64,000 nucleotides of DNA from an uncultured Gammaproteobacteria bacterium (GCA_913009875.1 CAJVYS010000003.1:13528-77527); one strand, 5' to 3'; positions 15,075-60,942 are shown, counted from the stretch's first letter. Notes: a model not told the origin generated them from the sequence alone. Made by a program: numbers and translations.

Positions 15075-16994
15075 TCATTGCCCACGCATGAACAGGCCAT
15101 CCAGCGCATCCATCTCCATCTGTACCCAGGTCGGCCGCCCATGGTTGCACTGGCCGCTGCGTTCGGTACGCTCCATATCGCGCAGCAGCGCATTCATTTC
15201 CGGGATCGTCAACTTGCGGTTAGCGCGCACGGAACCGTGACAGGCCATGGTACCCAGCAGTTCGTTGATGGCCTCGCGCACGCGCTGTGTAGTACCGTAG
15301 GTGGCCAGGTCCGACAGCACGTCACGCACCAGCGTTTCCACGTCCGCGTCACGCAGCAGGCTGGGCACCTGCCGCACCACCAGCGTCTCGGGCCCCATGG
15401 CCTCGACAACGAAACCCAACTCACTGAAGACCTCGACAAACTCCGTGGCCAGGCGCGCCTCGCTCTCACTGACGGCGATGCTGATCGGCACCAGCAACGG
15501 TTGCGAACGCACGCCTTCACCGTCCAGTGCAGCCTTCATGCGCTCGTAGGTGATGCGTTCATGGGCGGCATGCATGTCCACCACGATCAGTCCCTGGGCA
15601 TTTTCGGCGAGGATGTAAATACCATGCAGTTGGGCGATGGCGTAGCCCAGTGGTGGTGCCTCGGTGGATTCCGTGTCCTGCGTGACGTTCCCGGCCGGTA
15701 GTGTCTGCGCCCCCTGATACAGCGCCTGCAGGCCCGGCTGCTGTTCGCGCACGGCGAAGGCCATGTTGGATTGCCGGTGATAGTGGTTGCCCGGTGAACT
15801 GCCGGAATAACTGCCAGTAGCGCCCCCGACAGGAGGCGAATGCCGTTGCATGGACTGCTCGGTGACGGTCTGCCCGGCTGGCGCTGCGATGATTTCGCCA
15901 CTCTCCTCATCCACAGTTGCGCCCGGACGCACATCGGCCAGGGCCTGATGCAGACTGCGGAACAGAAAATCGTGCACCGTGCGCCCCTCGCGGAAACGTA
16001 CCTCGTGCTTGGTGGGGTGCACGTTGACATCCACCGCCGTCGGATCCAACGCCAAATAGAGCACGTAGGCCGGGTGCCGACCGTGATAGAGCACGTCCTG
16101 ATAGGCCTGGCGAATGGCATGCGCCACCAGCTTGTCACGGATCATGCGACCGTTGACGTAGAAATACTGCAGATCCGCCTGCGAACGGGAAAAGGTGGGC
16201 TGCGCCACCCAGCCCCACAGGCGCATGTCAGCGACCTGATAATCCACCCACAGGGCCTGGTCGACAAAGGCCGAACCGCACACCTGTGCCACCCGTTGGC
16301 GCTGCTCCGGCTCGCTCTGCGCCGGGCGCAACTTCAGCACCGTGCGCTGATTGTGGCGCAGGGCGAAGGCGACATCGAAACGGCTCAGGGCAATGCGTTT
16401 GACCACCGTCTCGAGATGGGAGAACTCGGTCTTGTCGGTGCGCAGAAACTTGCGCCGCGCGGGAGTATTAAAGAACAGGTCGCGCACCTCGATGGTGGTG
16501 CCCTCGGGATGCGCCACCGGCTGTGGCTCGCTGATGGCGTCGCCGCCGTCACCCGTGACGCGCCAGCCACTGTCATCGCCACGCGCGCAGGAACGCAGCT
16601 CCAGCCGCGACACGGAACTGATACTGGGCAGGGCCTCGCCACGAAAGCCCAGGCTGACCACGCACTCCAGATCATCAAAGGAGTGGATCTTGCTGGTCGC
16701 ATGACGGCTGAGGGCGAGGGGAAAATCCTCCTTGAGAATGCCGCAGCCGTCGTCGCGCAGGCGGATCAACTTACGGCCGCCCTGCTCCACGTCGATGTCG
16801 ATGCTGCGGGCACCGGCGTCGAGGCTGTTCTCCAGCAGCTCCTTGACCACCGCCGAGGGGCGTTCCACCACCTCACCGGCGGCGATCTGGTTGGCCAGGC
16901 GGGTCGACAGCTTCTGGATGCGGGGAACTGCCGGAGCATCGGCAGGCGTTGCGGCGGAATTGGCAACAGCGGTATCGGCGGTGGAATCGCTCAT
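15075..16994 (-). CDS. mutL: DNA mismatch repair protein MutL
   Basis: GHKL ATPase N-terminus ([30 protein letters not shown]...) and MutL C-terminal dimerisation domain. Synteny with amiB and tsaE. Confidence 0.9.
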
Positions 16995-17183
16995 GGATGG
17001 CCGGGACTCGTGCGGGCCTGCAAGGCAGGCGTCTGAAAAGGGCCATTATACGTGCCAGTCACTGCTGGCCCACAATTTTCCTTCCCCCGTGAGAAAACAC
17101 GAATATCGCAGAAACGGGCTGTGTCAGCGAAAAGGCCTGAAACAAAGCCGCAAATGACGCCAATGAACGCGAATACACCCTTC

Positions 17184-17474
17184 TTATAATCTGTTTCTCT
17201 CTTCTTCTCTCTGGTGCCAGATTCTCAAAATATTGATTGTTTTATCGAGAACCAAATACCGAGCGACGTAACTTCCTAAGACCAAATCCCTCATCAATTC
17301 TGGATTCGGTGCTTTACTGACTTGTATTCCTATCTGCGGAAATCGTTTCAGTTTTTTAACGCCATCCAGGAGTGAATTGGCAATTCTCCCGGCCGCCTCT
17401 GGATTATTGGTTTCGATAAACTCTCTCAACCGGGCCAAGTCTTCAATGGCCTCTGGCGTGTAAACAATTTTCAT
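17184..17474 (-). CDS. type II toxin, ParE/RelE superfamily
   Basis: 96 aa. Overlaps the upstream antitoxin by 4 nt. Lies in a local low-GC segment. Typical RelE/ParE length and charge pattern. Confidence 0.65.
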   Translation of the reverse strand: MKIVYTPEAIEDLARLREFIETNNPEAAGRIANSLLDGVKKLKRFPQIGIQVSKAPNPELMRDLVLGSYVARYLVLDKTINILRIWHQREEERNRL

Positions 17475-17737
17475 ATTTTCGGGGGTGATTGTTCATTTTC
17501 TGTTCCCCAACTCTTAAGCCAATCCACAACTTCAGCTTCTTCAACAACAACGCCATTTTTCACCGAATCCAAAGCCACGAGAGTCTCAGTCCAGCGTTCT
17601 TCTTCAATGGCACGCCTATCCAAAAACTCTTTAATCGCCTGATTAATCAGATAATTTTTGCTTCTGTCCAGTTTTTTTGACAGAATTTCCAGCGGTTTTT
17701 CAACGTCTGGCCGTAAACGTATGCTGGTGACACCCAT
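17471..17737 (-). CDS. type II antitoxin, ribbon-helix-helix (ParD/CopG-like)
   Basis: 88 aa. N-terminal RHH-like segment (TSIRLRPDVEKPLEILSKKLDRSKNYLINQAIKEFL). Translationally coupled to the downstream toxin. Confidence 0.6.
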   Translation of the reverse strand: MGVTSIRLRPDVEKPLEILSKKLDRSKNYLINQAIKEFLDRRAIEEERWTETLVALDSVKNGVVVEEAEVVDWLKSWGTENEQSPPKI

Positions 17738-17997
17738 GATATTTCTCCTTCTAGACTACAGCTAACTACATTGTAGTACAAAATGAAAATGAAGGAAGTT
17801 CCAGCCAAAGTCCACAACGGTTAGCTTGTGACACCGCTCTGCGGTGTTACTCATCCCGTGGCGCTCAGCGCCACACCATCGTTGGTAGAGTAGGGGTATT
17901 CGCATCCATTAGCGTCATTTGCGGCTTGGTTTTCAGGACTTTTCGCGGGCATGACCCGCACCTACAGGGCGATTGATGCGCCACGACGGACGCGCAA

Positions 17998-19308
17998 TCA
18001 CATCACAGGAATACGCAGGGTCTGTCCGACCTTGAGACGGTCGCCGGAGAGGTTATTGGCCGTGCGCAGATATTTCTGGCTAATGCGGTACTTCTGCGCG
18101 ATGCCACTGAGGGTGTCACCACGTCGAATCACGTATTTCCGCCCACTCTTCGCCTTCGGTCCACTCGGTTTCAGCGCCAGCAGGGTGCCAGGCGGTGCAT
18201 TGCGGGTGAAATAGCTGCGCACGCCACGCAGCATGGCGCTGGCCAGCTTGCGCTGGTAGTTGGGGTCACGCAGATTACGCTCTTCGCGGGAATTGGAAAT
18301 AAATCCGGTCTCCACCAGGATCGATGGGATATCCGGCGACTTCAGCACCACGAAACCGGCCTGTTCCACGTGCGGCTTATGCACCTTGGTAATGCGCTTC
18401 AACTCGCCCAGCATCAGCCCACCAACGTCAAGGCTGGCAGCAATGGTGGCATTCTGCGAAAGATCCAGCAGCACCGAGGCGAGCAGGTCATCCTTGTCAT
18501 CCAGACTCACGCCGCCGATGAGATCGGCGCTGTTCTCGCTTTCCGCCAGCCAGCGACCTGCCTCACTGCTGGCGCCCTTCTGCGACAGCACCCACACCGA
18601 GGCGCCGCGCGCACGGCCATCACGGAAGGCATCGGCATGGATAGAGATGAACAGGTCGGCCTTCATGTCGCGCGCCTTCTGCATGCGCTTGCGCAGACTG
18701 ACGTAATAGTCGCCGGTGCGGATCATCACCGGGCGCATGCCGCGCTCCTGGCGGATCAGCCGTTCCAGCCGGCGCGCGATGGCCAGCACCACATCTTTTT
18801 CCCGCGTGCCGTGGCGGCCGGAGGCCCCCGGATCGTCACCGCCGTGACCGGCGTCGATGGCGATAATCACATCGCGTACCTTGCCGGTCGTCGCCTGCAC
18901 GCTGCGCTGCGTCACCGTCGGTTTGCTGCTCGGTTCCTGCAGGTCGATCACCAGACGGTGGCCGTATTTCTGCGTCGGCTTGAGCAGGAAGCTTTTCGGC
19001 TGCACCTTGCCACGCATGTCCAGCACCACACGCAGATTGCCATTGTGCGTGGCGCTGCGCACGCGGTGCACGAAGCTTTTACTGAGATCCAGCCGCCCCA
19101 GGTCATGCAGCAGGCGGGCATTCTTGATGTCCACCACCACCCGCTCGGGGGAATGAAGCACAAAGAGCTTGTGGCTGACAGGGCCGTTAAGGTCGAAAAC
19201 CAGGCGGTTCTGATCCGGGCCGGACCACAGGCGAACGCCCTCAATCGTTGCCGCCGAGACCGGCAGAGACAACGTCAGCGCCAGCAAAATCAGTAATGAT
19301 CGCTGCAT
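17998..19308 (-). CDS. amiB: N-acetylmuramoyl-L-alanine amidase (AmiB/AmiC type: AMIN domain, Amidase_3, C-terminal LysM)
   Basis: Amidase_3 motifs (AIDAGHGGDDPGA..., ISIHADA). C-terminal LysM (YVIRRGDTLSGIAQKY...LKVGQTLRIP). Signal peptide from MQRSLLILLALTL. Conserved tsaE-amiB-mutL neighbourhood. Confidence 0.85.
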   Translation of the reverse strand: MQRSLLILLALTLSLPVSAATIEGVRLWSGPDQNRLVFDLNGPVSHKLFVLHSPERVVVDIKNARLLHDLGRLDLSKSFVHRVRSATHNGNLRVVLDMRGKVQPKSFLLKPTQKYGHRLVIDLQEPSSKPTVTQRSVQATTGKVRDVIIAIDAGHGGDDPGASGRHGTREKDVVLAIARRLERLIRQERGMRPVMIRTGDYYVSLRKRMQKARDMKADLFISIHADAFRDGRARGASVWVLSQKGASSEAGRWLAESENSADLIGGVSLDDKDDLLASVLLDLSQNATIAASLDVGGLMLGELKRITKVHKPHVEQAGFVVLKSPDIPSILVETGFISNSREERNLRDPNYQRKLASAMLRGVRSYFTRNAPPGTLLALKPSGPKAKSGRKYVIRRGDTLSGIAQKYRISQKYLRTANNLSGDRLKVGQTLRIPVM

Positions 19309-43176: not shown

Positions 43177-43884
43177 TTAAAGCAGCCCGGTGCGACCTGC
43201 CTCCTTGATCGTCATGCCGACGAAGCGGCCATCTTTAAGTGCAAGAACACGGTCGGCAATATCCAGAATGCGTGGATCGTAGGTAACCAGCAGAATGGTT
43301 GAGCCCTGCTTTGTGGCAAGATCGTGCAACTGTTCCACCACGACCCGCCCTGTCTTGCCGTCAAGCGATGCCGTCGGTTCGTCGGCAAGGATGATCTTCG
43401 GGCGCATCACAAGGGCACGTGCAATCGCAACCCGCTGTCTCTGCCCACCGGAAAGTTGGCATGGAAACTTGTCGATATGATCGCCAAGACCGACCTGCTT
43501 AAGGATATTGTCTGCCGCCTCGGCGGGTGACTGGATCTCCGGGTGTAGGCGCAATCCCATCATCAGATTCTGGTGTGCCGTCAGCGCATCGATCAGGTTG
43601 TGAAGCTGGAAAATAAAACCGATATTCCGACGTGCCTCACGCAGCACTTTCTGAGGTGCACCGTATAATTCCCAACCCATCAATCTGACACTGCCTTCCT
43701 GCAGGCTCCTTAGGGCGCCGATCAGGGTTAGAAATGTCGTTTTCCCCGAACCGGAAGGCCCAGTGACAATCACCACCTCGCCCGCGTTTATCGTTCCTGT
43801 CAGTGAAAACAGCACCTGGCGGCGCAGGTTACTTTTGCCAAAGGAATGACTGACATTGTTGAATTCAATAATAGGACTCTTCAT
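43177..43884 (-). CDS. ABC transporter ATP-binding protein (DevA/MacB-ATPase/LolD family)
   Basis: Walker [10 protein letters not shown], signature [14 protein letters not shown], Walker B ILADEPT. Start MKSPIIEF overlaps the permease stop. Confidence 0.85.
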
Positions 43885-45056
43885 CGGAAGAGTTCCGCAG
43901 GATCTGCCTTTTTCAGATGCCGCATGGCAAGAAGCCCAGCCAATATGCACATAATTGTCGTAGAGGCAAAAGCTAAGGCAGCTTTATCAAGACTCAGGAT
44001 CATCGTATAGCCGGTTGATGCAGCCGTATAACGATAGATTACCCACGACAGGAGCGTGCCGGGAATGAAGCCGAGTACCGACAGGATAAGAGATTGTTTG
44101 AGTACCAAAGCGGAAAAAAATCGGTCGGAATAACCCATCGCCTTGAGCGTCGCAAATTCTGGCAGGTGGCTGATTACATTAGTATAAAGAATTTGATAAA
44201 CAATCACTGCCCCGATGATAAATCCCATAATGGCACCGACAATAAACAAGAAACCGATAGCTGCGGTCTTGTTCCAGTAGTCTATTTCATGTTGCACAAA
44301 TTCAGCACGCGTTAGCACCTTAACGTCTTTCCCTGCCAGCATTTTACGGATCTTTTCCCGCATAATATGAGGGTCTGCGCCTTGATCGAGTCGTACGAGG
44401 CCGATATTCACAAGCCCTGGTGTGGCGTTTGGGAAAAGTGCGAAAAATGTCTGTTCTCCCATCAGTACATTGCCGAAAGCAGCGAAGGTGACGCCGATGT
44501 CAAATAGCCCATCAACGGTAACATTGTGGCCTGCTACCGTGGCGGCAAAGGGGCCATCGCGATTGAAGCGGTAAACCACGTTGCCGAAATAACTGCTGAG
44601 GCCCTTTTTATCAAACAAAACACTCCCAGTAACGGTGAGCTTGCCCTCCTGAGTGATGATATCCGGCAGGGTCAGCATATGACGTCCTGGCTGAAGGCCC
44701 ATACACAATATCCAGCGTTGATAACCCGTATTGATATTCTTAAAACTACAGAACGAATAATAAAGAGGAAGCACTTCTTTGACTCCGGTTACTCCCGCTG
44801 CCTGCATAAGCCTTGGACGGGCAAAGTCATGTTGCGAGCCAAAGAATTCAAACCCGGCGGGTATAATAACCAGCTGTGCATTCAGGTGTTTGAGCACCTT
44901 GGTGGCACTATCGTTCATTGCTGAGTAAAAACCGATCTGCACCAGGATTAAGAAAACGGCAAAGCTTATGCCGGCGAGTGCAGCGGCAAGCCGGCGTTTC
45001 TCAAAGATGATCTGACGCCATGCGAGCGAGAATCTCTCCTGGCCGGAATGTCTCAT
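43881..45056 (-). CDS. ABC exporter permease, FtsX/DevC-like (MacB-type, 4 TM plus periplasmic domain)
   Basis: N-terminal TM, large periplasmic domain, C-terminal FtsX-like three-TM bundle. Coupled to the ATPase gene. Confidence 0.75.
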   Translation of the reverse strand: MRHSGQERFSLAWRQIIFEKRRLAAALAGISFAVFLILVQIGFYSAMNDSATKVLKHLNAQLVIIPAGFEFFGSQHDFARPRLMQAAGVTGVKEVLPLYYSFCSFKNINTGYQRWILCMGLQPGRHMLTLPDIITQEGKLTVTGSVLFDKKGLSSYFGNVVYRFNRDGPFAATVAGHNVTVDGLFDIGVTFAAFGNVLMGEQTFFALFPNATPGLVNIGLVRLDQGADPHIMREKIRKMLAGKDVKVLTRAEFVQHEIDYWNKTAAIGFLFIVGAIMGFIIGAVIVYQILYTNVISHLPEFATLKAMGYSDRFFSALVLKQSLILSVLGFIPGTLLSWVIYRYTAASTGYTMILSLDKAALAFASTTIMCILAGLLAMRHLKKADPAELFR

Positions 45057-45121
45057 AATTCAATCTCTCCAGGTCGCATTCCCCGTTGCCCGCAGTGAAA
45101 TAATTTATTGCCCTAAACAAT

Positions 45122-45194
45122 TGTAGGAGCGGACCCTTGGGCCGCGATTCCAAGGGTGGGAAAACCATCGCGGCCCAAGGGTCCGCTCCTACAA
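45122..45194. repeat. palindromic element, family 4 (tgtaggagcggacccttgggccgcgat ... atcgcggcccaagggtccgctcctaca)
   Basis: Near-perfect ~27-bp arms. Related to the outer arms at 3404-3575. Confidence 0.8.
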
Positions 45195-45248
45195 CACGAT
45201 ACCTCGTCAGCTCGCCTAAAGCGCCTACTTTTGGTGCTGTGGGGTGGT

Positions 45249-45926
45249 TCAATTCGCTTTGCTGGATATATCTATTAGCGCCGTGCCCTGCAGGTTGATA
45301 AATCGTGCCGCCGCCGCGCTGTCTTTCAGGGTGATGTAGACCTTTATGATGCGGGCCTCGGTATTGGGCATCGGATCGGGCGAATAGATCGCTACCCGCG
45401 TGAGGCTGGGTGCTATGCGTGTGACCGTGCCCGTGAGCGACTGACTGAGTGCCGGACTCTTGAAAATTGCGGATTGCCCTTTTTTCACATATTTGATGTC
45501 GGTTTCATAAACCTCTGCGACCGCTTCCATATGGTCAATATCCCCAATCTCAGCGATACCTGTCGTCTCTGAAACGGCTTCGCCATCTCGAGCGTAGATG
45601 CCAAGCACCATACCCTCGACTGGTGAGCGTATTATCATTTTACTGAGTAGCGCCTCAGCTCGCTTTAAATTGAGTCGTGCTTTTTCCAGTGCTATTTGAG
45701 TCCGTTCAGACGCATCGCGTTGATCGTTGCAAGATTCTTGCGAAATGGATTTATTTTTGAAAAGTGTCTGTCGATGATCAAATTCACGCTTTTTTTCCGC
45801 AGCATCAACTTTTGCCCGTTCGACTTCCGCCTTAGCGATCCCGACTTCAATCCTGCGAACATTCGCCATATCAAAGACGGCAATGACATCACCCTTTTTG
45901 ACCCTCTGGCCTTCTTTCACGGGCAT
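45249..45926 (-). CDS. periplasmic adaptor (HlyD/membrane-fusion, DevB-like). ORF as tracked lacks its membrane anchor; the natural N-terminus extends to 46094 but is interrupted by an in-frame TAG.
   Basis: Biotinyl-lipoyl hairpin VRISEMPVKEGQRVKKGDVIAVFD and beta-barrel/MP domains. Upstream in frame: MKKITTV-TAG-IFLFTVSLTFADNASRPERVGALARLEPHNGVHTLAGPSSVVSVRISEMPVK. Confidence 0.7.
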   Translation of the reverse strand: MPVKEGQRVKKGDVIAVFDMANVRRIEVGIAKAEVERAKVDAAEKKREFDHRQTLFKNKSISQESCNDQRDASERTQIALEKARLNLKRAEALLSKMIIRSPVEGMVLGIYARDGEAVSETTGIAEIGDIDHMEAVAEVYETDIKYVKKGQSAIFKSPALSQSLTGTVTRIAPSLTRVAIYSPDPMPNTEARIIKVYITLKDSAAAARFINLQGTALIDISSKAN

Positions 45927-46141
45927 TTCAGAGATCCTTACCGAAACAACGGAGGACGGACCTGCAAGGGTGTGGACGCCATTGTGTGGTTCAAGACGGG
46001 CAAGCGCACCGACCCTTTCAGGTCGGGAAGCGTTATCAGCGAAGGTCAGGGATACCGTAAAAAGGAAAATCTATACCGTAGTAATCTTTTTCATACGCAA
46101 TTCCTAAATTATTTTTCACGATTTACTGGTAGCGACAGGTT

Positions 46142-48187
46142 TTACAAAAACGGTACCAGCAACAAGGCCATCAGGCTCAGTACCTTGCGCATCGGATTGA
46201 TGGCCGGGCCGGCGGTGTCCTTGCAGGGGTCGCCGACCGTATCGCCGGTGATTGCCGCCATGTGGGCCGGAGAACCCTTGCCACCGTAATGACCGGCTTC
46301 GATATATTTCTTGGCGTTGTCCCATGCCGCCCCACCGGTACTCAACATCAGGGCGAGAATCAGTCCTGAAATGACAGCGCCGATCAGGATACCTCCCATC
46401 AGCTGGGCGCCACTGCCGTGTGGGCCAAAAGGTGTCCAGGCAAAGGCGACCAGTAGCGGTACGATCACCGGCAGTAGCCCGGGCAGGATCATGCCGCGGA
46501 TCGATGCGCGGGTCAGCATGCGCACAGCCCGGGCGTAATCCGGCAGACGTTCGCCAGTGAGAATCTCGGGGTGGGCCTTGAACTGCTCGCGAACTTCTTC
46601 AACCACCGAGGCGGCGGCCTTGCCGACGGCCTTGAAGATGATGCCGCTGAAGATAAAAGGTAATAGTGCACCGATGAATAACCCGGCAAGAATATAGGGG
46701 TTATCAATGGCAAACGAGACACCGTCGAGGCGCGAGCCAAATTCCAGCTTGAAGGCGCCAAACAGCGCCAGTGCCGCCAGCCCGGCGGAACCGATGGCGA
46801 AGACCTTGGTGAGTGATTTGGTGGAATTTCCTGCGGCATCCAGTTCGTCGGTGACCTGGCGAACTTCCTCGGGAAGATGTGCCATCTCGGCAATGCCGCC
46901 GGCATTGTCGGTGACTGGCCCGTAGGCATCGATGGCGACTACCACCGGGGTCAGGGAGAGCAGGGCGACAGTGGCGATGGCGATGCCAAAAATGCCGGCG
47001 AAGGCATAGGCAGCGATCACCCCGGCCGCGATGACCAGGGTGGGGATCAGGGTCGATTCCATACCCACCGACAGACCGGCAATGATATTGGTGGCGTGTC
47101 CGGAGCGTGAAGCGCGGGCGATCTCTTGAACCGGGCGGTGATTGGTACCGGTGAAATAGGTGGTTGTCGCCACCATGCCGATACCCACCGCGAGGCCGGT
47201 CAGAGCGCTGGCGAACAGGCTGTTGGCCGTGTAGCTCGTGGCGCCAGCCGGCATCCAGTGACTGGCGAGGTAAAAGCCTGCGGCACTCAGTACGATGGTT
47301 AACAGCACGGCCCGTATCAGGGTGGAGAGAATGGTGCCGTGGGTACTGAGTCGCGAGGTATGAATGCCGATCATGCTGGCGAACAGAGCGACACCACCCA
47401 GCACCAGGGGATAAACCTGGTCGGCGTTCTCGCCGCTCCCCGTTACAGAGGCGACCAGCATGGCGGCCACCAGTGTCACCGCATAACTCTCAAAAATATC
47501 GGCGGCCATGCCGGCGCAGTCACCGACGTTATCGCCGACATTATCGGCAATCACGGCTGGATTGCGTGGATCGTCCTCGGGAATACCCTGCTCGATCTTG
47601 CCGACCAGATCGGCACCCACATCGGCCGCCTTGGTAAAAATACCGCCGCCCAGACGGGCGAAGATGCTCACCAGCGAGGCGCCAAAACCCAGCCCCGCCA
47701 GCGGGCGCAAATCCATCGGGCCGGTGTCGTTTAGGCTGTAAAGTAAAAGGTAGAAGCCACTGACGCTGGCCAATGCCAGCGCTCCCACCAAAAATCCCGT
47801 GACGGCACCGGAACGGAGGCTGATTTGCAGTGCGAGCGGCAGTCCCTGCCGGGCAGCCGCCGTGGTGGTCCGTACATTGGCGCGTACCGCGACCCACATG
47901 CCCACGATGCCGGAAATGGCGGAGCACAGTCCGCCGATGGCAAAACCCAGTGCGGTCAGAAAGCCGAACTGGGGGGTGATCCAGAGAATGATCAACAGCA
48001 AAACACCGACGGCCAGAATCGTCAGGTACTGGGTGCGGATGAAGGCGTTGGCCCCTTCACGAATAGCCAGGTAAGGAGGGCGCAATTCGGCACCCCCTTC
48101 ATCCTGACGCAATACCCAGAGACCGCACCAGATCGCATAGGCGAGCCCTGCGGCAGCGGCAATCAGACTAAAGGTCAGGGCAATCAT
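46142..48187 (-). CDS. hppA: membrane-bound proton-translocating inorganic pyrophosphatase (V-type H+-PPase)
   Basis: 681 aa, ~16 TM. Conserved GGG..TKAADVGADLVGK, DNVGDNVGD and EYYT-like regions. Confidence 0.9.
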   Translation of the reverse strand: MIALTFSLIAAAAGLAYAIWCGLWVLRQDEGGAELRPPYLAIREGANAFIRTQYLTILAVGVLLLIILWITPQFGFLTALGFAIGGLCSAISGIVGMWVAVRANVRTTTAAARQGLPLALQISLRSGAVTGFLVGALALASVSGFYLLLYSLNDTGPMDLRPLAGLGFGASLVSIFARLGGGIFTKAADVGADLVGKIEQGIPEDDPRNPAVIADNVGDNVGDCAGMAADIFESYAVTLVAAMLVASVTGSGENADQVYPLVLGGVALFASMIGIHTSRLSTHGTILSTLIRAVLLTIVLSAAGFYLASHWMPAGATSYTANSLFASALTGLAVGIGMVATTTYFTGTNHRPVQEIARASRSGHATNIIAGLSVGMESTLIPTLVIAAGVIAAYAFAGIFGIAIATVALLSLTPVVVAIDAYGPVTDNAGGIAEMAHLPEEVRQVTDELDAAGNSTKSLTKVFAIGSAGLAALALFGAFKLEFGSRLDGVSFAIDNPYILAGLFIGALLPFIFSGIIFKAVGKAAASVVEEVREQFKAHPEILTGERLPDYARAVRMLTRASIRGMILPGLLPVIVPLLVAFAWTPFGPHGSGAQLMGGILIGAVISGLILALMLSTGGAAWDNAKKYIEAGHYGGKGSPAHMAAITGDTVGDPCKDTAGPAINPMRKVLSLMALLLVPFL

Positions 48188-60054: not shown

Positions 60055-60942
60055 TGGCTCCTTATTGGTGATTCGTGTCTGCTACGACCAGGATATATTT
60101 TAAATATCCATGGTACCGTAATCAAAAATCGTCTCTATGAAACGGAGAGACAAAGCAAAGCATACGGCACGTTACGAACAATTATCTTCATCGGAAAACA
60201 AGGCAAACAGATCCCTGTAATAAGCACAAACCTGACATTAAGCGCCGCTGAAATTGTTGCTCGGTTACAGAAGAGATGGGTAGAAGAGAACGGATTCAAA
60301 TATATGGATGAACATTACAATATTGATCTATTGACCACCTATGAAACAGAAGAGGCCCCCGACAAAATAATGAGCAGGCCTAACCCAGATCGTAAAGCCG
60401 CGAACAGAGCCATAGCAGAAAAGAAAACGGAGCTCAAAGAATTAAAAGAAAAATATGCCACGAAACTAAATGAAACAAAAGATAAAGACGAGCTGACCAT
60501 CGCCGCGTTTGAAGAGCAAGAAAAAGAGCTAAAATTGGAAATAAAAACTGCCGAGATGGAGCTGGGGTTACTGGAGTTAAAGCGAAAAGAGATCCCCAGT
60601 AAGGTAGAAAGCAACCTGAAAGAGGAAAGCGTTATCAGCTCTCAAAAACGAAGACTGTTCATCAACTTGGTAAAGACCATGAACTACAATTGTGAAAAAT
60701 GGCTGCAGCTCATTTTTTGTCAATTTCACCCGAAAGCGGATGAAACCTTAAGCCTGATCCGGCATCTCTTGACCCAGCCAGGTCGCATTCGCCAGCGGGG
60801 CCAGATCCTCGAAGTTGAGTTGGAAAGGCTCGATAGTGGGGTACAGGCCAACACGCTAGATAAAGTGTTGGAAAAGTTCAGAGAAGACAATCACTTAAAT
60901 CTTCCTGATGGTCGGAAACTGGTGATTTGGCAAGCGCTGTGA
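60055..60942 (+). pseudogene. transposase remnant: C-terminal DDE-region fragment with no start codon (open frame from 60055; first ATG only at 60304)
   Basis: ...GKQIPVISTNLTLSAAEIVARLQKRWVEENGFKYMDEH... carries the Y-x2-RW-x-VE-x2-FK signature of IS4/IS5-type DDE transposases. The upstream part is missing. AT-rich context. Confidence 0.5.

Follow-up and report, generated by a model that had tools for sequence, protein, structure and literature searches.

A recent amber mutation in the adaptor gene devB very probably leaves a DevBCA-type exporter dead or crippled in a Chromatiales bacterium

What does a stop codon at the eighth position of an adaptor gene mean for the exporter to which that gene belongs? 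The question is raised by a locus in a 64,000-nucleotide stretch of DNA from an uncultured gammaproteobacterium (the whole stretch is referred to below as the window). On its minus strand, the sequence and its translation displayed a reading frame of 281 codons that runs from an ATG at 46094-46092 to a terminal TGA at 45251-45249 and contains a single internal stop. The frame (45249-46094) was assigned as a pseudogene of devB, coding for a periplasmic adaptor (membrane-fusion protein), on the basis of the sequence, its translation, the family model TIGR02971 and the 281-aa orthologues. It begins ATG AAA AAG ATT ACT ACG GTA TAG ATT TTC CTT, the amber codon lying at 46071-46073 on the minus strand. 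The initial annotation had reported a TAG at codon 8, and its coordinates and quoted translation proved exact when the minus strand was re-read. Its statement that no other start lies between the TAG and the downstream MPVKEG, whose methionine is Met57, was also borne out by the list of open reading frames and a stop-to-start count (0 ATG, GTG or TTG before Met57). The Met57 frame is preceded by 48 start-less open codons, and the only near-cognate codons between the TAG and Met57 are ATT (codon 9) and CTG (codon 16). The interruption is not a product of chance, since the read-through product can be aligned with the 281-aa orthologues over its whole length.

The stop splits a predicted Sec-type signal peptide, which spans devB codons 1-19 (46038-46094, minus strand) and was recognised from the orthologue consensus and from a modelled helix. 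Its parts comprise an MKK n-region, a hydrophobic core and a cleavage-like site between TFA and D, where cleavage would be expected by the -3/-1 rule. In the AlphaFold2 model of an orthologue, P0001, a helix at residues 4-16 is followed by a low-confidence linker. A Shine-Dalgarno-like AGGA motif (46102-46105, minus strand; context GTGAAAAATAATTTAGGAATTGCGTATG) was located 7 nt upstream of the true devB ATG, from the sequence only. A direct repeat, TACGGTAT, occurs at codons 5-8 and 12-15 and was considered as a template for the TAG; this was rejected, since the second copy would give TCC and not TAG.

The initial annotation had proposed a DevBCA-like exporter, an assignment confirmed by all three products exceeding the cut-offs of the curated NCBIfam families. 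Read-through DevB, with X at codon 8, reached 185.8 bits on TIGR02971 (cut-off 129), DevC 345.1 bits on TIGR01185 (cut-off 290.35) and DevA 302.6 bits on TIGR02982 (cut-off 295.8). As it stands in the window, DevB is not an uninterrupted member of TIGR02971, the TAG at codon 8 breaking the frame that leads from the signal to the C-terminus. The Pfam domains were HlyD_3, HlyD_D23 and lipoyl-like domains for DevB, FtsX for DevC and ABC_tran for DevA, and the genes follow the order devB-devC-devA on the minus strand. The ATPase and permease genes (43177-45056) had been described as intact, and both frames are indeed uninterrupted: devC (43881-45056, minus strand; TIGR01185) encodes an FtsX/MacB-type permease of 391 aa with an identical product in the sister strain L009, and devA (43177-43884, minus strand; ATG at 43884, stop at 43177; TIGR02982) encodes an ABC ATPase of 235 aa. 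In a database search, read-through DevB had 14 close homologues, which share 66-92% identity with it and are for the most part 281 aa long. The 92%-identical orthologue P0001 gave an AlphaFold2 model with a pLDDT of 87.9, for which the top Foldseek matches were MacA, EmrA, AcrA and MexA (E = 1e-17 to 1e-12), indicating the periplasmic-adaptor fold of lipoyl domain, alpha-hairpin and beta-barrel. The best structural match was MacA in 9QGY (Foldseek E = 3.6e-17), and MacA was also the best solved match by sequence (4DK1, phmmer E = 1.4e-12). The neighbouring genes scanned included no outer-membrane-factor (TolC/HgdD-like) gene and no substitute adaptor or second ABC exporter, and no biosynthetic genes hinting at an exporter substrate adjoin the operon.

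The system most closely resembles DevBCA of Anabaena sp. PCC 7120, the heterocyst-glycolipid exporter, with which it shares the gene order devB-devC-devA. The Anabaena system is a MacB-type tripartite exporter that requires devB, devC and devA together with the TolC-like HgdD, and mutants in devB, devC or devA each lose export (PMC8277102). DevB-type adaptors appear to be without a membrane-proximal domain (PMC8277102), which fits the short 281-aa protein found here; no such domain is evident in the model. Unlike in Anabaena, the host is a Chromatiales gammaproteobacterium and not a cyanobacterium, the signal peptide of the adaptor is short and apparently cleavable, and the adaptor gene is inactivated by an amber codon. 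A likeness to MacAB-TolC (E. coli MacA: PDB 3FPP, 5NIK, 9QGY) lies in the partner of the adaptor, a permease of the MacB/FtsX type whose ATPase is either separate or fused. However, sequence identity between MacA and the present DevB is only ~18-23%, and MacA, at ~370 aa, has an N-terminal transmembrane anchor and a membrane-proximal domain, compared to 281 aa for DevB here. MacB, moreover, fuses the ATPase to the permease, whereas devC and devA are separate genes in this operon.

The codon that the TAG replaced can be read from the orthologues. In the protein alignment, 13 close homologues retain the N-terminus; codon 8 is Leu in 11 of them, Ala in one and Val in one, within a consensus of MKxIxAVLICLFTVSxAFA followed by xxTSRPEKVGALARLEP. 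In the DNA alignment, codon 8 is TTG in L003 (the contig of P0001, with the common PPase-devB synteny) and in L004-L006 (of the 'bacterium BMS3Abin11' type), and TTA in L012-L014. The TAG of the window was therefore derived by a single T>A transversion from TTG. The initial annotation had correctly expected orthologues to carry a sense codon at this position; the candidates it named (TAT, TGG or CAG) were wrong, the ancestral codon being instead TTG, for Leu.

The same TAG was present in two further records, L010 (NCBI GCA_011043965.1) and L011 (ENA ERZ909563, run DRR093004, PRJDB5792), which were found by an exact-product look-up of the neighbouring PPase and which, as they may share one sequencing run, possibly represent one independent confirmation and not two. 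Their haplotype differs from that of the window at 6 sites over ~7.8 kb. One of these is a 1-bp deletion that frameshifts devB in L010/L011, at a base that is intact in the window (45707, minus strand; the G of TCTGAACGG). The deleted G is a lone base outside any homopolymer run, and devB of the sister haplotype is on record at NCBI/ENA only as fragments of 148, 119 and 77 aa. A pattern scan of metagenome contigs, with variable bases left open, returned 0 matches, L003-type sequences included, the collection evidently being without these samples. The annotation names the organism 'Chromatiales bacterium' (a third-party MAG), and PRJDB5792, the source of related assemblies, is a deep-sea massive sulfide deposit project (PMC11427306).

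The devBCA operon holds four of the six differences between the two strains, all four protein-altering and none synonymous. By comparison of the haplotypes, the frameshift arose in the sister strain, while F122C, G18S and E217K are derived in the window, the other lineages compared all agreeing with one another at these positions. The first is a change from TTC (Phe) to TGC (Cys) at devB codon 122 (45730, minus strand). The other two are substitutions in devA, G18S at 43833 and E217K at 43236; at both positions the other devA sequences checked, three in number (from the sister strain L009, from L004 and from L001), agree with one another. The two devA changes may reflect early drift after the inactivation of devB, the sample being too small to tell. 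At an omega of ~0.15, the probability of three out of three changes being nonsynonymous is ~0.03, though little weight was given to this 3N:0S signal because the sample is tiny and an excess of nonsynonymous changes is usual in very recent polymorphism anyway. Between L012 and L014, both with an intact devB, the count was 5N:3S.

Over the longer branch, pairwise omega for devB was 0.15-0.20, and parsimony counts for the window and its closest intact relative, L012, were 9N:9S versus 8N:12S in devB, 21N:32S versus 17N:30S in devC and 9N:23S versus 4N:21S in devA. The operon totals (39N:64S for the window versus 29N:63S for L012, p = 0.37) gave no significant relaxation on the window branch. As no decay over the long branch is discernible, the TAG must be young relative to the ~6% nucleotide divergence from L012. 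Of the options left by the initial annotation, that of a recent pseudogene is thus the one supported by the data: the stop was reproduced, Leu is ancestral, and the window branch gives no sign of long-term decay.

A further loss of the gene was encountered in L015 (GCA_024276955.1, JAJRWE010000072.1, 2800-2835), where devB is deleted and the PPase stop is followed by ~25 bp and then the devC ATG, only the last ~12 nt of devB being left (AAAGCGAATTGA). Judged from these alleles, devB was inactivated on at least two independent occasions, through a nonsense mutation in the lineage of the window and through deletion of the whole gene in L015. By parsimony counts, devC and devA together had accumulated 26N:31S on the L015 branch, compared to 5N:26S on the L012 sister branch (Fisher p = 0.009). 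L015 also displays frameshifts in PPase and devC; these were rejected as signs of decay, since they lie in T4 and T7 homopolymers and are probable assembly errors. Because the homopolymer indels look technical, the count was controlled with the neighbouring PPase on the same branch (8N:52S; p = 0.0002 against 26N:31S), so that random substitution errors cannot account for the devCA signal. The substitution pattern indicates that the permease and the ATPase lose constraint once the adaptor is lost. Such relaxation is in line with the genetics of Anabaena and gives a prediction of what will become of the window operon.

The region upstream of Met57 required particular attention, as gene callers place the start of a 225-aa ORF at this internal ATG (45924-45926, minus strand), which has a Shine-Dalgarno-like TAAGGA motif (45935-45940) 8 nt upstream. 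The choice is not confined to the interrupted allele: the intact 281-codon devB genes of two relatives are also annotated as 225 aa (L012:6373-7050 and L014:3964-4641), although the same L012-type allele was annotated at 281 aa by another caller (P0136). An N-terminal lesion in L012 and L014, which the 225-aa calls could have implied, was rejected, since in the alignment the frame is open and codon 8 reads TTA, so that the gene is intact. With the upstream frame open and evolving as coding sequence, the Met57 calls in intact orthologues are a start-choice artefact that is systematic for the subfamily, brought about by the TAAGGA that precedes the internal ATG.

Two explanations would spare the gene from being dead, one by denying the lesion and the other by denying the relevance of the first 56 codons. 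A miscalled base in this contig, the real genome reading TTG, would be the smallest possible artefact, a single-base substitution in a metagenome-assembled genome, and error-like homopolymer indels do occur in the related assembly L015. Yet the stop recurs in L010 and L011, which are separate records from other pipelines, an unbroken allele of the window type is missing from the protein collection, in which full-length proteins come no closer than 92% identity, and the remainder of the window is dense with long intact ORFs. Because the same TAG is carried by two records that show six further differences from the window, a sequencing error, which the initial annotation had allowed for, is effectively excluded, and the probability left to it is very small. 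It is just as hard to credit that the functional product is the 225-aa protein from Met57, either as the anchor-less adaptor that the initial annotation had entertained or through a naturally used internal start. The Met57 start does have a good Shine-Dalgarno-like motif at the same distance in all lineages, and callers choose it even in intact orthologues. Against this, the motif is accounted for by the conserved V-R-I codons at that point, and the L012-type allele has also been called at 281 aa. All intact relatives keep the upstream 56 codons open, with purifying selection acting on them (omega 0.28-0.42 among intact lineages), and orthologues do not start at MPVKEG but carry the full MKxIxxVLICLFTVS...FA and the conserved VGALARLEP, which substantiates the view of the initial annotation that the upstream frame holds a plausible adaptor N-terminus. 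By homologue conservation, the model and omega, codons 29-56 (45927-46010, minus strand; VGALARLEP...VRISE) form a family-conserved beta-strand segment that would be absent from any Met57 product: L31, R33, E35, P36 and P46, residues of the ALxRLEP type among them, vary little or not at all among 60 homologues, the most distant at 33% identity, and the P0001 model has strands at residues 27-43 and 53-56 with high pLDDT. Finally, a Met57 product would be without an export signal and part of the fold, while every solved relative is a periplasmic adaptor.

A gene that is interrupted but still functional deserves somewhat more consideration, though it too is very improbable. Amber read-through, a suppressor tRNA or reinitiation at the ATT of codon 9 could in principle provide an attenuated but useful adaptor, as the stop comes very early and is directly followed by the ATT, a rare but known bacterial start codon. 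Downstream of the stop, devB is intact in the window strain with a low overall omega, and devC and devA are uninterrupted. A low overall omega is, however, expected for any recent lesion, and a restart at the ATT would, by a reading of the sequence, yield a signal peptide without its positively charged n-region. In the window, TAG terminates 10 of the 57 long ORFs, well-matched genes included. Two TAG-ended ORFs were checked for their Pfam boundaries: a PEP-utilising enzyme matches its domain up to residue 800 of 812, and an ABC exporter is of normal length (602 aa). Stop usage and Pfam end-points were used for this purpose because a six-frame scan for other single-stop-split genes was too noisy at 57% GC. 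The search for tRNAs and Rfam families in the 64-kb window found only tRNA-Ser(CGA) and no suppressor tRNA. As TAG serves as an ordinary stop, no tRNA other than tRNA-Ser(CGA) occurs in these 64 kb and orthologues have Leu with no conserved TAG at the site, amber recoding at devB codon 8 is very improbable on the evidence of the window. The gene also appears dispensable here, since the sister haplotype has added a frameshift and another lineage has deleted the gene.

The spacers on either side of devB provided further observations. The devB-devC spacer (45057-45248, minus strand; 192 bp) contains a perfect palindrome of ~29 bp, with arms at ~45120-45148 and ~45167-45195, as established by alignment, repeat search and folding. 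The repeat search found the two arms, with 0 expected by chance and a single occurrence in the window, and the RNA fold reached -88.5 kcal/mol (z = -5.7). The palindrome is flanked by ATTGAA direct repeats that resemble a target-site duplication, and the insertion is absent from L004, L001 and L015, where the spacer is only 3 bp, and common to L003, L011 and L014. These features suggest a REP/MITE-like insertion. In several other assemblies, the contig breaks exactly at this palindromic spacer. Between the window (43177-46094) and L012:6205-9168, dS was 0.20 for PPase and 0.17 for devB, and 0.67 for devC and 0.49 for devA, the latter two being as large as those between the window and the outgroups L004 and L001. 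The mosaic points to recombination with a breakpoint at the devB-devC junction or close to it, where the palindromic insert lies, and devB and devCA of the window may have different histories.

The PPase-devB spacer (46095-46141 in the window) is 47 bp in the window and the sister strain and ~155 bp in L003:2846-3000 and L012:6047-6204. The ~108 bp absent from the window include, in L012, a hairpin (ATTCCGGG-CGTGA-CCCGGAAT). A promoter scan found no sigma-70-like promoter at 44900-46400, a range that covers this spacer, so that expression of the operon may rely on read-through out of the PPase gene. Elsewhere in the window, an ORF at 60304-60942 (within 60055-60942, plus strand) has only a C-terminal match to Transposase_29 (profile positions 348-505 of 562; E = 8e-6, below the gathering score) and is preceded by 83 start-less open codons; it is probably a truncated transposase remnant. 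A region of ~1 kb at 16994-17998 contains no ORF of at least 120 aa and no Rfam match.

Taken as a whole, the results make it very probable that devB is a young pseudogene, in which TTG became TAG in a recent ancestor of the strain cluster, and that the DevCA exporter is dead or crippled. A single T>A transversion would have converted the Leu codon within the DevB signal peptide into an amber codon, such that translation from the AGGA-preceded ATG would stop after 7 residues. Met57 would be the only canonical restart, and we infer that its product, devoid of the signal peptide and of ~30 conserved beta-strand residues, would be cytoplasmic and incomplete, and that devB has thereby lost its function. 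Reinitiation at the ATT or amber read-through could yield traces of exportable protein, though the frameshift and the deletion in relatives argue that the cell does not depend on trace DevB. DevC and DevA are perhaps still made; without the adaptor they would not be coupled to an outer-membrane duct and there would be no trans-envelope conduit, which would leave the operon functionally dead or crippled, with drift begun.

In its make-up, the locus resembles ordinary nonsense pseudogenes, with a single-base premature stop compared to intact orthologues, secondary lesions (a frameshift, a deletion) in close relatives and relaxed constraint on the dependent neighbouring genes. It does not differ from them in kind, and is unusual only in that three stages of decay are found side by side. 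That adaptor loss in the sulfide-deposit Chromatiales clade is not only recurrent but adaptive, with selection for shedding the exporter as opposed to neutral decay, is conceivable but unlikely. If it were true, the cost of the exporter, or access by phages or predators, would be possible reasons for shedding it. In a weaker variant of the same idea, the early amber codon would be leaky and would throttle DevB levels.

For annotation, the finding means that the 225-aa record of the window and the 148-, 119- and 77-aa records of the sister strain, entered as 'HlyD family' proteins, would be fragments of a dead gene, and that a working DevBCA exporter should not be attributed to the MAG. It also exposes a start-calling artefact, by which orthologues with an intact gene are given a false length of 225 aa, counted from an internal ATG. 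For the biology of the family, the related genomes would represent three stages in the decay of one operon, from the intact form, through a nonsense mutation with or without a frameshift, to deletion of the adaptor with its partners drifting. This succession agrees with the genetics, according to which a DevCA-type pump is useless without its adaptor. The case appears to be one of ordinary gene loss in a known family, and leaves the current understanding of that family unchallenged.
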